Shown: positions 20,873 through 41,036, numbered from the whole stretch's first letter. The stretch: 63,564 nucleotides of DNA, filler included, from 7 parts of 7 records of this genome joined end to end with filler, not necessarily neighbours in it, one strand, 5' to 3'. Numbers and translations are program-made. The notes: generated from the sequence alone by a model not told the origin.

Positions 20873-20972
20873 NNNNNNNNNNNNNNNNNNNNNNNNNNNN
20901 NNNNNNNNNNNNNNNNTTAATTAATTAANNNNNNNNNNNNNNNNNNNNNNNNNNNNNNNNNNNNNNNNNNNN
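20873..20972. other. Artificial assembly spacer N44-TTAATTAATTAA-N44
   Basis: The identical 100-nt cassette with stops in all six frames recurs six times. Confidence 0.98.
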
Positions 20973-33707: not shown

Positions 33708-35690
33708 TCACCTCTTGCGCTTGTTGCACGACCGGGTCTGGTCGAACTCGGCCATGGCCATGTGGGCGTTGGCGAGTGCCGGCCGGGGCTCCCAAGTGGC
33801 CTCCTCCTCGGGGAAGCCTTTCCACTTGACTAGGTACTGCTCAGTCAGCCCGATCATCCGGTAGTCGAGCAGCCGCTCCACCTCGTACTCTAGCTCGATC
33901 CGTCCGTTGAGCAGCGCGTTGGGCTGGACAGTCACGCCGCCCCCGCCATGCTCGAGCTCGCGCAGGTCCGGCGCCCCACGGGCCGGCGAGATCTCGGGCC
34001 ACTGGTGCACGCTCCGCCTGAGCAGCAGCTCGAGATTCGGGCGCAGCCGGGACGGTCGGAGCTGGATGGCCATCATGTAGGATGGTGGCGCGTCCGCTGA
34101 GAGCGTGAGCGATCTGTCGTCAGCAAAGTGCCAGTGCCGGTAGCCCAAAAGCTGCTGCTTGCCGCCGGCTTTGTACCGGGCGACCGCCCCGACCCGCTTG
34201 AACCCGTGTCGCTCGTAGAACTTAATCGAACTCGGAGTGGCCTGGAGCACACACAGGTCGTAGTCGGTAGACAGCTCCTCTATCGCCAGCTGGAGCAGCG
34301 CGCTGCCGCACCCGAGCCCGCCGAGCAGCCCTACCTCGGCTACCCGCTCCCAGACCAGCCCTGACTCGTGGTCGCCGCTGCTCTGCTGCTCGGCCAGCAG
34401 TCTAGCTAGATCATGCGTCTCATCCAGCTCACGCACCCCGACCTCGTCCAGCCTGCCAGCAGCTCACCCCAAACCCTGCCAGCAGCACACCTCTCCTCGA
34501 GCGCCCTGTCGCGCACGGTGCACAGCGCCCCGGCGTGGACCGGCCCGCGCCGTGTGAGCTGCGGGTTGAGCGCCAGCAGGTCGTTGAGTTCGACTCGCAG
34601 ACTGCTCGCGAGCTCGGCCACCGAGCACGGCCGGAGCAGCTGCACCTGCCCCCGGGTGATGGCGGCCCGGCCGGCGGGCGCCTGGTCGGTCTCGAGCTGT
34701 GCCGGCGAGCGGAGCTGGACCAGCGTACCCTCCTGCAGCCGACAGCCCGGCCGGAACTCAGGCCCGTATGCCGCCTGCCGCTGGCTCAGCTGCACAGCAG
34801 AGCATGGCACCTGGTTGAGCCCGACCACGTGCTCTATCGGCACCCCGTGCAGCTCGCTGATCTGGCGCAGCCTCAGCCGGGCCCGTGCGGGGCAGCACCT
34901 GGAGCGGCGTCTCGTCCTCACACGCCCGATGAGTCTTCGCCGGCCTGTGGTGCCGCCACGGGGCACCGGCCGGCACCGCCTCGCCCCGGGAGACTGCGGC
35001 GTTGGCCATCCTGGCTGCGGGTATCCCGGAGGCTTTGTGCGTGTTGGACCAGCGGAAGCCGAGCACCCAGGCCGTGAAAGTTGTGACCTGCCTGCCCTTG
35101 AGCAGCCGGCCGGCGGACTGTATCACCGTCACGAACCCCTGCAGCTGCCCGGAGTGCTGCGCCCGCACCTGCCCCCGCCTGACCGGGCGCCCCCGCTGGG
35201 CCGCGCCTGATAGCCCCAGAGCGGATCGTCTATGTCCACTCGGTCCGCAAGGTAGGCCAGGGCCAGCGGGGCCGGCACCTGCCACGCCCAGTCAGCCTCC
35301 CGCCCGCCGGGGGGGCTGCCGTCTCCAGCCGCAGCCGGGCCGCATGCCGCCGGCCGGCCTCCTCGCACAAGGCGGTCATCTCGCCCAGACAGCGGACCCA
35401 ATCTGCCCGGTGCGCCGGCCGGACGATCACGCTCCCCTGCCCCCAGCTGTGACGGAGACCGACTGCAGCGGCACCTCGAGCCCCAGCCGGCATCGGGGCA
35501 CCTGGGCCATCCGGTACCGGGCCTGGCCGCTGGCTGGGCTCTTGGCGGCGGTGCGTGTGTACGCCGACTGCTTTCCGATCACCTTTAGCACCAGCGTGTT
35601 GCCCTCGCGCCGTTTCACCTCGAACTTGGCGTCCCGCGGGATCCGGACCGCCCGCGGCGACCGCCCGGGCGACCGAGGCGGCAGATCCAT
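33708..35690 (-). CDS. GNAT acetyltransferase with inserted LysM-like repeats and a C-terminal chromodomain
   Basis: GLLGGLGCGSALL and VLQATPSSIKFYERHGF (GNAT); ETPLQISELHGVPIEHVVGLN and SVAELASSLRVELNDLLALNPQL (LysM-like); YEVERLLD..YLVKWKGFPEEEATWEP (chromo); terminal KRKR. Confidence 0.8.
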
Positions 35691-35807: not shown

Positions 35808-36818
35808 ATGCAGCGGCAGGCGGGGGAGGCGGGGCCGGCGGAGGCGCAGCTGGAGGCGCTGTGCAGGGTTTGCGGCGGGCTGACCGGGCGGCAGGGCTAC
35901 CTCGGGGCCACGCGCGACGTGAACAGCTTCGTGAAGCTCGATAGGATCGGGGAGGGCACCTACGGCACTGTCTGTACGCCGGCCCAGCCAGCCAAGGCTC
36001 AGCCCGGGCGGCAGTCAAGGCCCGGGACAAGGCCACCGGCCAGATCGTGGCGCTCAAAAAGGTCAAAATGGACAGGGAGCGCGATGGGTTTCCGATGACT
36101 GCCCTGCGCGAGCTCAAGGTGAACCGCCGGCGGGCGGCAGGGAGCGGGGGCAGCTGCTGCGGCGGGTGTCGCACCCGAGCATCGTGCGGCTGCTGGAGGT
36201 GGCAGTGGGCCAGAAGCTGCACAGCATGTTCTTCATCTTCGAGTACTGCGAGCACGACCTGGCGCTGCTGGTGGACAACCGGGAGCGGCCGTTCTCCGAG
36301 TCCGAGGCGCCTGCCCGATTAGGAAGGTGTGACGGGCCACAGGTCAAGTGCATCATGGTCCAGCTGCTCCAGGCGGTGAGCTACCTGCACCGGAACTGGA
36401 TAGTGCACCGGTCCCGCCCCGGATAGTGCTCGCCTGACCTCAAGATCCGCCAGGGACCTCAAGCTCTCCAACCTGCTGTTCAACAACAACGGCCAACTCA
36501 AGCTGTGCGACTTTGGACTGGCGCGCGAGTACTCGGAGCCGGCCGGTCAGTACACTAGCCGGGTGATTACGCTATGGTGCCTGCCGCCGATCGCAGCTGC
36601 CAGCTCTGGGCAGGTACCGGCCGCCCGAGCTGCTGCTGGGGGCCAGCCAGTATGGCGTGGCGGTAGACAATTGGTGCTGGCCGGCTGCTGTGCGCGGGAG
36701 CCCGGGCAGGGGGGTCGGGTGCATCCTGGGGGAGTTGATCCAAAACCAGCCGCTCCTCCCGGGCAAGACCGAGCAGCAGCAGCTAGAACTCATCTGCAGG
36801 GTCCCCCCCCCCCCCCTC
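35808..36818 (+). CDS. CDK10: Cyclin-dependent kinase, CDK10/CDK11 family (3' end lost in gap; at least 6 introns)
   Basis: [60 protein letters not shown]. Confidence 0.9.
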
Positions 36819-36918: not shown

Positions 36919-37147
36919 AACTTGCCCTCAGGAATGCCCCAGTCATTGGGTTTTTTAAGTCATAGGATAGTTTAAGTTGCGGTTAAGTTGCGGTACTCAA
37001 AAACGTCAAAATAATTAATTGATTACATGTGTACATGTAATGATTGTACAGTAATCATCGTACAAACCACAGACTGAAATTAATCATGATAATATTGTGC
37101 AACACAAAGATTATTGCAACAATTAACCTACAACTTTAATTCGAGCT

Positions 37148-38470
37148 CTATCTCGCGGTGTACCTTGATGAGCTGCTATTCGTTGCTACCACAGCAAGCT
37201 CATTGTTAATCGCCATGAGCTTCTGCTCCAATCGGATAGCAAGCATCTCCTCGAGCATGGCCTGACCGGCCATCACCATCACAAATGAAACATGACCATG
37301 CAGTATAGGTGAGCACACCTTGGCTGATTGCAAGTCGGGCTGGTCCGAGGTTGCTGGAAGCTCCTGCAGCTGTCAGTCAGCCGGGTCGGTTGGGTCCTAG
37401 GGCCAGGCTCGGGCACCGTGAGGGACGGATCGCTCAGCCTTTCACTGTTCCAGCTGCGCCGCATGGCCAGCCATGCCTGGGCCGGCTCAGCCGTGCGACC
37501 GGGCAGCAAGCCTGCTGGTCTGGCTCGACTGGCGACTTTGGTCCGCGCGCCACTAGTTCGCCTGCCGACAGAGTGATCCAGGATGCCGCCGATGCTCACG
37601 GTGCCGCCGGGCAACTTTCGGGTTAGGGTTAGGTTAGGGTTAGGCTCACGCTGCCGCCGGGCAACTTTGTCCTGCTCTGCAACACATTCGAGTGCGGCTG
37701 CCATCAGCTCGGCACTCTGCCCAGCCCGGCTGCCCCGGCTCAACTCGGCTCACGCGGTGCGGGCACCGCTGGTTGGGTTCGGTCGGCTCGCTAACGCGCT
37801 GGTTTGCTGCCTCGTACCTGCTCTTGGGTCAGTCGGCTCAGATGGCTGGCGTACGCAAGCAGCTGCCTCTCCATCTGGGCTACAGACCCGCTTGCCTGCT
37901 GCAGCTGCGCCCGGCTGGTCCCTGGCGGCACCGGCCGGACCTCTCTCTCGAGCTGCTCGGCTTCGTGCTCGATCCGCTGCTTGAGTTGTTCCAGAGAGCT
38001 GCGCTCGGTCAGTCAGCCGGCCTGCCGCTGGCCACCGGGAAGCGGCCGACCCGGCCGCCCGCGCCTCTGCGAGCACCACCTGCCCGCCCGGCTAGCTGTG
38101 CCGCCTCCCCAGTACGGCGCCTCCGGCCGCCGGACCGGCTCGCCGTGCGGCAGCTGTCTGCTCCCGGCTCGGGCCAGGCTGGCCGACGGCGCGCACCCCT
38201 TTGGGGAGAGAGGGGAGGACTTGGCGGCCACAGCTTGCCGCAGCACCTCGAGGATCTCGATCTGGGCCGCCTGAGCCTACCCTAACCCTAACCCTAGGAT
38301 CCGGGCCGCCTGCTCGGCCAGCGCCGCCTGTCCGAGCGAGCTGGCGTGCTCCAGCCGCTGCCCGCCCGCTCAGCCGTCGGCCCGGGCACCCAGCGCACAG
38401 CCTCGAGCTCGGCGACTTCGCCCGCCAGTGCGCGAGCCTCCTGGGAGAACTGGCGCTCCGCCGCGCTCAT
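37148..38470 (-). CDS. Intron-rich hypothetical coiled-coil protein (hosts the telomeric-repeat introns)
   Basis: Spliced model MSAAERQFSQEARALAGEVAELEA|RLEHASSLGQAALAEQ|AAQIEILEVLRQ ... DKVARRQ|RELVARG..|AWLAMRR..|LQELP..|AMLEEMLAIRLEQKL; middle exons less certain. Confidence 0.7.
37619..37643 (+). repeat. Interstitial telomeric repeat (TTAGGG)n flanked by 25-nt direct repeats
   Basis: cgggttagggttaggttagggttag lies between gctcacg(g/c)tgccgccgggcaacttt copies at 37594-37618 and 37644-37668. Confidence 0.92.
38274..38297 (-). repeat. Interstitial telomeric repeat (TTAGGG)n flanked by 15-nt direct repeats
   Basis: Plus-strand agcctaccctaaccctaaccctag lies between gatc(t/c)gggccgcctg copies at 38259-38273 and 38298-38312. 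Confidence 0.92.
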
Positions 38471-38538
38471 CGAGCCCGCATGACAGCCGGTGGCGCTCAG
38501 CGCGGGTGGTGCTTGACAGCTTCACACAGAACAAAAAG

Positions 38539-39327
38539 ATGCTGTCCGGGCACCACTCTGGGACTCCGGGGGGACTCGGGCTGTCGAGCATCACCCCGAG
38601 GACCAAGCAGTGCGGGCTGCAGGGGCCGGCCGATGAGCCCGGGCGGCAGGACTGCGGACGCGGACATCCAGGGCTGGGTCCGCCAGCTGGAGGCCGAGGC
38701 GGCCGAGCGGGTCTCCGAGCTCAGCCAGCCCCTACAGCGCGAGCTGGTCAGCCCGGCCGAGTGGGAGCACGCCAGCCAGTCGTACCGGCGGCTCGACCTG
38801 ACCGGCCGGGGCTCGGTCCCGGCCCAGAGGGTTGTCCAGGCGCTTGGGCGGCCTGTGGGTTCGGGGCCGGTGAGCGAGGCTGATTGGCACCGGTGGGTGC
38901 TCGAGCAGAAGCAGCGGCTGAGCGGTGGGCCGGGGCCGCTCGGTGGCCGAGACCGGACAGGCCCCCGGTTCGGCGAGCTGCTGCACCGGATTAGGGCGGC
39001 GGTGGACCAGTGGGCGGCCGACGGTGGGCCGGGCAGGGCCAACCGGCGCTGATAGACAGGCTTGCAGGCCAAGCGCGAGGCTATAGTGTGAGGACGGCCA
39101 GGGCTGTGGTGCTCAGGGCGGCCAAGGCGCTGCCGGGCCAGCTTGAATCCAATCCGCACTGCTCAGCCAGGCAAGCCGCGGCCGAGTGGACTGACGGACT
39201 CGTTAGGTTTGCGACCGACTTCCTTTGCCCGCGGCTGGCCCACATGATCGACAAGCTCCCCCGGGCGCACAATCTAGACCACCTCACTCCTGCACGCCGC
39301 CAAGTTAAAACCCGAAAGTGGTGGTAA
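38539..39327 (+). CDS. Hypothetical protein with a degenerate EF-hand; 3' end uncertain
   Basis: ATG follows an A-rich leader; a GT-AG intron joins to SYRRLDLTGRGSV..VSEADW (EF-hand-like). Confidence 0.45.
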
Positions 39328-39578
39328 TCCGGTTTTCATATTCACCGACCCTCCCATCGCGTTCTCATGACAGTACGCGTAAACGATCAGCACCTAACCA
39401 GCACCGGAATGCAGCCGATCGTTCGTCGATGCCATGTGTTGGCTCGGTCGGATCTACAACCCACGAGCTGCACCATCTACCGCCGTATCTGTTCACGCCC
39501 AGGCGACTGACACGGCAATCGCATCGCGCATGCTGACAATCTGTGCAGACGAGCACACAGACGCGGCGCTGAGAAATC

Positions 39579-41036
39579 ATGGCCAGTAGTGCTGTGCCGA
39601 AGGCAGCCCTAGCGAGGGGCATGTCCTCGCTGGTTGGCGTGAAGGGCCCAGGGGGTCGATCGTCGGTGAGCGGGATCCAGGCTGCGGTTTTTGGGGCCTC
39701 GGGCTTCCTGGGCAACTACGTGGTCAACGCTCTCGGTATGCCCGAGCCGACGGGGCGCACCGACCGCCGGGCGCAGGCCGCGGAGGATCGCAGGTGGTTT
39801 GCGCTCACCGGGGAGAGCCAGACGACGCGCGGCACCTCAAGGTGATCCGGGCCCCGCCGCTGGCTGAGCGGGCGGTGCTCAGGTGATGGGCGACCTCGGG
39901 CAGGTGCACATCCTGCCCTACCACCTCAAGGACGAGGCGTCGGTCCGCAGAGTCACCGAGGCGCCCGCCGACCTTCTGCCGCCGGCCGAGCTCTGGGGGT
40001 GGACAGGGCTGCAACGTAGTGATCAACCTGGTCGGGGCCCCGTGGGAGACTCGAAACTTCAGCTTCCAGGACGCGCATGTCGACGGCGCCGCCCTGATTG
40101 CCCAGTGACGCCCTTAGAGCCGCCCGCGACCGACCGATGCGGCGCAGGGCGGCGGCGGACGCCGGGGCGGATCGACTGATTCACGTGTCGCATCTGGCTC
40201 AGGCGCTGCCCTGGCGCGTGTCGCGTGTCAGTCTGACTGCGGCACCAGGGCTCAAACCCAGACTCTGGGTTTGCGACATCTAAAGCGGAGGGCGAGGCCA
40301 AGGTGAAGCAGATCTTCCCCGAGGCCACGATCCTCCGTCCAGCCACTTTGTTTGGCGAGGGCGATAGATTCTTCTCCAGGCACAGCTTGCGGCCGGCAGC
40401 TGCTGACTGGGCTTCAGTGCCGCGGCGCTGGGCAAGCTGCTGCCACTGTTTCCGCTGGTGGAGGGTGGCACCACCAAGCGATCCCCAGTCTGGGTGAACG
40501 ACGTGGCCTCGGTACGCCTCGTGCCGCTCTGTGCCTGAGCCTGGTATTCAGGCCGTCCTCAACTGCTTGCACGACCCGGACACAGCCGGCAACACATTCG
40601 AGCTGCAGGGCCCGCAGGCCTTCACCTTGGAACAGGTGCCGCCCGAGCGCCGGGCTGGCTCTGAGTGCTGCAGCTTTACACCCAGCTTTTCGATCAGATC
40701 AATGTCTCCACCACATTCGTGCACATGCCGCTACAGGCACTTGCACCTTGCCTGCGTCGGCTGAGCTGTGCGGCCCCAGATCGCCAAGCTGAACGCGACA
40801 GTCTTCGAGAACGCGCCCATCCTCGGCCGGTCGGCTGTGCTGGTCAAGGTTTGGTCCGGGCGCGGGCAAGCTGAGTTTGGGACAGGACGACGTGCTGCTG
40901 GCGGCTGTGGACGAACTAGGCTCGGACGGGGCGCTCGGGTTTTCTGAGCTCGGGATCGAGCCAGAGTCCCTAGACATTGTGCTCGGAAAGGTCTGCCTGC
41001 TGACCGCCGGGCGAGGATTGATGTGCTGCTGTGCAG
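39579..41036 (+). CDS. NDUFA9: NADH:ubiquinone oxidoreductase 39-kDa subunit (11 introns, 4 GC-AG; 3' end lost in gap)
   Basis: [97 protein letters not shown]. Confidence 0.95.

Follow-up and report, generated by a model that had tools for sequence, protein, structure and literature searches.

The DNA analyzed here (the window, 63,564 nucleotides (nt) in all) carries a telomere-like insert at 37594–37668, within a minus-strand orphan gene of a marine protist (37148–38470), and we conclude that 50 bases at this site, namely telomere-type repeats and the neighboring 25 bases copied a second time, are a real, non-random, and naturally polymorphic scar of DNA break repair. A sister insert lies ∼630 nt upstream in the same gene at 38259–38312 in the opposite orientation, and, as judged from the sequence next to their repeats, the two are probably linked and not independent. 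With moderate confidence, we consider the scar to be no functional element but one of two linked twins, located in a stretch that is non-coding and not demonstrably spliced. Because the window consists of seven contigs (4.1–20.9 kb) chained by linkers of the form N44-TTAATTAATTAA-N44 (for example at 20873–20972, and five more), features on different contigs are without physical linkage; both telomere-like inserts are on one contig, 36919–41036 (4118 nt). The sequencing runs that hold parts of this contig were all marine or seawater libraries, with a share of 0.15 or less in each.

Read along the minus strand, the insert and its surroundings consist of AAAGTTGCCCGGCGGCAGCGTGAGC, CTAACCCTAACCTAACCCTAACCCG, AAAGTTGCCCGGCGGCACCGTGAGC, and ATCGGCGGCATCCTGGATCACTCTGTCGGCAG (ATCGG...GGCAG), in that order. 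On the plus strand, copy B of a 25-nt direct duplication (37594–37618, GCTCACGGTGCCGCCGGGCAACTTT; its minus strand ends in ...GGCACC/GTGAGC) is followed by 25 nt of telomere-like filler (37619–37643, G-strand on the plus strand), which reads C and then GGGTTA, GGGTTA, GGTTA, GGGTTA, and G and thus comprises four units, one of 5 nt instead of 6. Copy A (37644–37668) agrees with copy B at 24 of 25 positions, the mismatch being 37651 versus 37601, and the duplication carries a donor-like site only (GTGAGC). Inspection by eye of the 5′ junction revealed ...AACTTT, then C, and then GGGTTAGGG, with bases out of register with the repeats, whereas the far junction has one G common to TTAG and GCTCAC. 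A repeat search of the 4118-nt contig identified the two copies (96% identity, spacing 50) as its longest short-range direct repeat. When the contig was shuffled 300 times with its composition preserved, the longest repeat within 200 nt with at most one mismatch had a mean length of 13.1 and a maximum of 16 nt, and 15 nt was reached in 26 shuffles but 25 nt in none. Only two tandem telomere-like tracts, both flanked by duplications, occur in the 63.5-kb window, with none in the other 59 kb, and single TTAGGG/CCCTAA hexamers show no background enrichment (13 in the window compared with 25.7 ± 5.2 in shuffles). No terminal telomere array or chromosome end lies within the window, and we assume that the telomeres of this organism consist of TTAGGG. 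A candidate for an older, third copy of the unit, near 37750, was rejected (best local scores of 21–24 versus 20.6 ± 2.3 in shuffles). Overall, sequence and repeat search bear out the description in the first-pass annotation of a telomere-type insert, opposite in orientation to a neighboring one, that is bracketed by a 25-nt duplication with GTGAGC.

We compared the window with assembled contigs from four sequencing runs; the comparison covered contigs only, none of which extends over 37771–39562, and such contigs can reveal presence but not absence. One run of oligo-dT RNA, X4, provided a contig (record 5; 266 letters, depth 2) that covers 37500–37770 with no joint and spans both copies of the repeat. 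Compared with the window, this contig has two other letters (37718 and 37728) and five gap letters. Both letter differences lie outside the repeats, and therefore the G/C difference between the duplication copies is common to the X4 strain. The X4 insert is 5 letters shorter, the gap being located within the masked interval 37615–37659 (where a single gap row was dropped); most simply, it represents loss of the odd TTAGG unit, and it indicates a length polymorphism, as expected for a non-coding, microsatellite-like interstitial telomeric sequence (ITS). The insert is thus present in a second natural strain and in an RNA library, and, because an independent RNA contig spans both copies, an assembly artifact or chimera is excluded for 37594–37668. 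Two concerns raised in the first-pass annotation, that reads might fail to span both copies and that the locus might be untranscribed, are answered by the same contig, with the caveat that DNA may be carried over into an RNA library. A contig from a DNA run ends at 37610 within copy B, and nothing was drawn from that end.

In several respects, the locus resembles the short ITSs of mammals (Nergadze et al. 2007, PMC2246262; Santagostino et al. 2020, PMC7215372). According to these two papers, short ITSs inserted during break repair include a minority class with target-site duplication, which is ascribed to staggered breaks and accounts for 6 loci among 130 in rodents, 4 among 25 in primates, and 3 among 66 in the horse; either orientation occurs, and ITSs vary in how many tandem repeats they contain (VNTR polymorphism; PMC7215372). 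The insert studied here similarly consists of a non-terminal run of near-exact hexamers that is flanked by a target duplication (24/25) and varies in length in a VNTR-like manner. Unlike in mammals, however, the host is a marine protist with introns of ∼40 nt, the insert lies within a gene, at or in splice-signal-like sequence, duplication and tract are of equal length (25 nt), and an inverted twin shares the flank. In the same papers, no human ITS lay in an exon, and how ITSs affect splicing was left open.

The sister insert (38259–38312, minus strand) consists of a 15-nt duplication (38259–38273/38298–38312, 14/15, spacing 39) around 24 nt of filler (38274–38297) that reads C, TAGGGTTAGGGTTAGGGTAG, and GCT on the minus strand, and its duplication is the second longest short-range direct repeat of the contig. 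Aligned along their G-strands, the 37619–37643 insert (plus strand) reads ...CAACTTT/C/GGGTTAGGGTTAGGTTAGGGTTAG/GCTCACGCTGCC... and the sister (minus strand) ...CCGGATC/C/TAGGGTTAGGGTTAGGGTAG/GCT/CAGGCGGCC... Both tracts begin after an extra C and end in ...TAG, and the two inserts form an inverted repeat (26 nt at 88% or 32 nt at 81%, 609–623 nt apart) that extends past the telomeric part. The 12 nt located 3′ of the G-tract (37644–37655, plus strand, GCTCACGCTGCC) match GCTCAGGCGGCC (38276–38265, minus strand) at 10 of 12 positions, an identity with P = 3.6e-4 among random 12-mer pairs of the contig, and we propose that this homeology served in priming. The first-pass annotation had regarded the insert as an independent event and, hence, as a sign that insertion is frequent and orientation-independent. 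Because the inserts share this non-telomeric flank and fold-back copying is the simplest account of it, this is not the best reading of the data, and, with no third tract elsewhere in the window, the notion of an independent event in a frequent process is probably wrong.

The shared flank also bears on two other accounts of the pair. Two telomerase healings of separate staggered breaks, in which the common TAG and GCT reflect chance or telomerase reading slightly past the end of its template, would explain why each insert has its own duplication of a different length (25 and 15 nt) and why TAG, with which a telomerase repeat cycle usually finishes, terminates both tracts. Bases copied from telomerase RNA are also described beside rodent ITSs (PMC2246262). 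We nevertheless consider two independent healings unlikely, because the identity runs beyond GCT (CA-GC-GCC) to reach 10 of 12 positions and because the only two tracts in 63.5 kb are located 630 nt from each other and inverted. Even though flanking duplications resemble transposon footprints, a small mobile element of the introner or miniature inverted-repeat transposable element (MITE) type, with target-site duplications, is far less probable still: the duplication length is not constant, the filler consists purely of telomere-type units with no terminal inverted repeats within a unit, and the window holds no further copy, so that the multiple related copies expected of such elements are missing there. 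An assembly chimera, to which we assign the same very low probability, is contradicted at 37594–37668 by the spanning contig described above.

Fold-back copying has precedents in other systems. In yeast, fold-back inverted insertions are primed on a 10-bp imperfect inverted microhomology and then captured by end joining, in a process involving Pol delta and non-homologous end joining, and that report describes a 41-nt loop and mentions resection of a few hundred nt (PMC11724301). Microhomology-primed inverted insertions also feature in studies on synthesis-dependent microhomology-mediated end joining (SD-MMEJ) and on "templated extension in cis" by Pol theta (PMC2943611, PMC5728401, PMC4912351). 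As in these systems, nearby sequence of the same strand recurs here as a short (∼24 nt) inverted copy, and directly beside the copied stretch lies a 9–12-nt imperfect inverted microhomology able to prime. Unlike in these systems, the loop would measure ∼610 nt as opposed to tens of nt, the copied stretch is itself telomere-like, and copy and template differ by two one-base or five-base slips. We worked out the polarity by hand. The plus-strand 3′ end ...GGCCGCCTG (38265–38273) pairs at 7 of 9 positions with CACGCTGCC (37648–37656) on the same strand, and extension from GGCCGCCTG on CACGCTGCC yields AGC followed by CTAACCC..., matching the observed sequence. The reverse direction of fold-back, with ...GCGTGAGC as a primer on GCTCAGGC, also fits the polarity.

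We therefore envisage an origin in two steps, each of which is conditional on the reading given above. A staggered double-strand break in the minus-strand orphan gene would have exposed a 3′ overhang, which, we infer, was extended by about four repeats, either by telomerase or by copying of a telomere-like template; fill-in of both overhangs and ligation of the ends would then have created the target-site duplication. The second insert would have arisen when resection was followed by the folding back of a 3′ end onto the homeologous 9–12-mer of its own strand; this 3′ end would have copied the neighboring tract in inverted form (AGC plus CTAACCC...) and unwound, whereupon the other end would have captured the product. 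At least one of the two tracts must be a primary telomeric addition, and because the fold-back account makes the other a copy, only one would be. The tract at 37619–37643 is slightly favored as the primary one because the GCT adjoining the tract is native there, being part of both duplication copies at 37594–37668, whereas at the twin it is extra filler outside the 15-nt duplication. The insert may have been tolerated as part of a transcribed stretch with little coding signal, which would be non-coding either as an intron or as retained or untranslated sequence.

Whether this stretch is spliced was judged against a trusted set of 16 local introns, ten of them RNA-verified in a neighboring gene and six taken from the reading frame of a kinase gene. 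On the neighboring plus-strand gene (39563–40991), RNA contigs of two runs skip ten stretches of 37–46 nt, which after sliding resolve into six GT-AG and four GC-AG introns and leave the spliced frame open. The protein-kinase gene (Pfam PF00069 on one exon) contains six introns of 35–43 nt, five with GT and one with GC. Altogether, the trusted introns (39579–40991 and 35919–36800, both plus strand) measure 35–46 nt, and all 16 end in CAG; GC-AG ends occur in 5 of 16, always with a preceding AG. Pelagomonas, in which intron lengths peak at ∼210 bp (preprint 10.1101/2021.10.25.465678), differs in this respect from the genome studied here and was rejected as a guide to the organism. In the region 9–20 nt before the 3′ end, CTGA[GC] is found in 8 and nnGA[GCT] in 14 of the 16, and CTAAC in none. 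We scored candidates by the sum of donor, acceptor, and branch contributions, for which the trusted introns, treated by leave-one-out, gave totals of 10.6–17.8, donors of 3.8–9.0, and acceptors of 5.7–9.6. As observations in their own right, the two boundaries of the RNA-verified intron at 39842–39882 share a 7-nt direct repeat (AGGTGAT), compared with 0–4 nt in the other 15, and within 36411–36470 the 9-mer GACCTCAAG in a kinase-gene intron is located 19 nt ahead of another copy, with which the next exon opens, and forms with it a small duplication across the 3′ splice site.

The first-pass annotation had proposed that the duplication copied the donor of an existing 38-nt intron (37562–37599, minus strand, GTGAGC...GGCAG), with two possible outcomes: a single 88-nt intron (37562–37649, minus strand) running from the copy A donor to the old acceptor, or a new 35-nt intron (37615–37649, minus strand, GTGAGC..CTAAC..AAAG) and a 15-nt micro-exon (37600–37614, minus strand) ahead of the old intron. 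We could reproduce the arithmetic (88 = 35 + 15 + 38), the preservation of frame in both outcomes, and the addition of LARRH by the micro-exon; together with the insert and its duplication, these parts of the interpretation stand, whereas those on splicing are unproven and that on independence is probably wrong. The 38-nt stretch, an unverified candidate, scored 10.2, which is at the bottom edge of the trusted range; its acceptor is strong (9.2), the context of its donor is weak, and a CTGA[GC] branch motif is missing. Seven antisense decoys in the same 1.2 kb scored 10.2 or better, a GC-AG alternative with the same acceptor (37562) outscored it, and the RNA contig is unspliced there. The 88-nt and 35-nt units do not fit the organism's introns when boundaries, branch site, and length are taken together (scores of 6.7 and −0.4, respectively). 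Hence, the claimed new intron with its micro-exon is unproven.

In the X4 contig, the sole RNA contig over the site, the 88-nt and 38-nt stretches are both retained, as is the sequence upstream. On the neighboring gene, both introns covered by another X4 contig (record 6) are spliced, and the run therefore contains mature mRNA of the organism. Thus, the unspliced form is present at the insert, and a spliced form was neither seen nor excluded.

It is possible, although in our view doubtful, that the 38-nt intron is genuine, that the insert arrived just behind its donor and duplicated it, and that a single 88-nt intron is now removed from the upstream donor onward, leaving the mRNA unchanged. 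The frame is maintained when the 88 nt are taken out, whereas splicing from only the proximal donor runs into a stop after 40 codons; the acceptor site (37562) is strong, a weak codon-frame pattern agrees, the GC content of 37262–37817 is like that of exons and introns and unlike that of the AT-rich 3′ end, and the 5-letter length variant would be harmless if intronic. Apart from the unspliced contig, this proposal conflicts with an upstream donor context (agc/GTGAGC) that scores −2.5, far from the trusted donors, with a length of about twice that of the trusted introns, and with a total of 6.7 even before any length penalty. It also conflicts with the X4 strain, in which the plus-strand change T>C at 37718 turns the AG of the candidate acceptor of the upstream exon (37718/37717, minus strand; the exon opens with SAELMAAALE...) into GG. 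No reading frame renders both X4 differences synonymous. The micro-exon structure is very unlikely. It is in frame, both of its introns would be within the local size range or on its border, and its CTAAC, located 9–15 nt before the AAG, is similar to CTGAC, the local branch motif; however, the acceptor AAG/t of the 35-nt intron scores −0.4 as against 5.7–9.6, all trusted introns end in CAG and none contains CTAAC, the X4 allele would shorten this intron to 30 nt, and the RNA contig is unspliced.

The host gene, an orphan set of coiled-coil-like open reading frames (ORFs) with its ATG at 38470, is consistent with an insert in non-coding sequence. Codon log-odds are clearly positive at 38470–38206, 38012–37818, and 37261–37148, the last of which terminates at a stop, with an AT-rich tail beyond it, and the first intron is located at 38358–38398 (41 nt, GT-AG, CTGAG branch motif). 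In contrast, the coding signal is weak on both strands at 37817–37262, the stretch that holds the insert. Word-indexed protein searches with three pieces of the gene found no homologues among proteins of 115–2000 aa (208 candidates, none with E ≤ 0.001), 27–88 aa, and 40–130 aa, HMMER, run in full against 1.84 billion representatives, returned 0 matches, and Pfam gave 0 families for the three pieces, although such blank searches do not prove that the gene stands alone. Because no homologue or family was found, the exons cannot be fixed by homology, and because dozens of candidates score 9.5 or more within 700 nt once GC donors are allowed, splice signals alone cannot settle the structure. Three structures keep the frame: the 88-nt intron together with small exons, a single intron of 556 nt (37817–37262), and a stop at 37793–37791 followed by a long 3′ untranslated region. 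A free dynamic-programming gene model, which proposed 16 introns, was over-fitted and was dropped.

The sister insert is a different case. Its 39-nt unit (38271–38309, minus strand, cag/GCGGCC...GCTCAG/g) is a candidate GC-AG intron within a strongly coding exon, for which the duplication supplies cag/GC at one end and CAG/g at the other, with UUAG located 13 nt before the end of the unit. When the unit is retained, the protein reads ...AARILGLGLG* and terminates at an in-frame TAG; when it is removed, ...AEQAAQIEILEV... is restored. Although its signal score (7.9) is below the trusted range, this unit is a better candidate than the insert at 37594–37668 for a repair scar that has become an intron. 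That introns can be gained when staggered breaks capture filler, so that direct repeats cover the splice sites, is an established model (Farlow et al. 2011, PMC3020277). Both inserts resemble this model in having filler and target duplication within a gene, and the sister unit matches the local intron size, but, unlike in the model, the duplication at 37594–37668 provides no acceptor to go with its donor-like site. Our limited literature search found no paper that joins telomeric-repeat insertion with intron gain or creation (one candidate was unrelated), and none of the papers it returned described filler of telomeric type.

Extending this model, in a genome whose introns measure only ∼40 nt and commonly have GC-AG ends, a break patched with three to four telomere-type repeats and a short duplication would be intron-sized and intron-shaped: the duplication would give cag/GC or GTGAGC and CAG/g, and the repeat, in either orientation, would give a branch-like UUAG or CUAAC. 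The twin at 38271–38309 would then be a newborn 39-nt GC-AG intron, the insert at 37594–37668 would have remodeled a neighboring intron, and fold-back copying would have locally spread a telomerase-seeded intron birth; we regard this as an unlikely scenario. The two tracts could in addition affect splicing by pairing with each other in the pre-mRNA. For the minus-strand transcript, pairing of the insert regions 37610–37668 and 38255–38312, which would loop out ∼600 nt, was predicted at −63.2 kcal/mol, compared with −33.7 ± 4.8 in shuffles.

Several points weigh against the reading that we prefer, in which a non-coding repair scar and its twin are linked by fold-back copying. The shared flank was noticed post hoc, and its P value should be relaxed several-fold; the fold-back loop of ∼610 nt contrasts with the 41 nt of the yeast example (PMC11724301); and the extra C at the 5′ junction differs from the in-register bases seen at 75–80% of mammalian ITS loci (PMC2246262). 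The duplication is what identifies the 50 bases as an insertion. We looked for an uninserted allele, but X4, the only other allele seen, carries the insert, and exact-pattern DNA scans for empty or variant alleles returned 0 loci in metagenome, genome, and viral contigs. With regard to splicing, the weak codon signals switch from frame 1 (37716–37650) to frame 2 (37561–37513), as the 88-nt intron needs, with a chance of 1 in 3, and the score of the 37562 acceptor is near the top of the trusted values, so that a real intron ending there is quite possible. Finally, a spliced form may coexist with the unspliced contig, which may itself derive from DNA carried over into the library.

Elsewhere in the window, one exon of the neighboring gene has a sub-threshold Pfam match to a Rossmann-type sugar-nucleotide enzyme family, and its spliced protein resembles, in our own impression, NDUFA9. 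A run of 14 C (36803–36816) closes the contig that precedes the one with the inserts. An uninterrupted ORF of 251 aa on the minus strand (33708–34463) contains a chromo domain (E = 4.5e-13) and weak matches to GNAT acetyltransferases. No Rfam family was matched in the window.

How new spliceosomal introns originate is a long-standing question, and among the leading models is the mending of staggered breaks together with capture of filler. The locus described here offers a concrete, young-looking case in a marine protist with tiny introns, in which the filler is still recognizable, the duplication is intact, and a natural length variant exists, and in which the sister insert stops a clearly coding exon unless it is spliced. 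The shared flank would provide an example, from a natural population, of fold-back templated insertion, a class documented mainly in assays with induced breaks. It further cautions that neighboring ITSs need not represent independent telomerase events.

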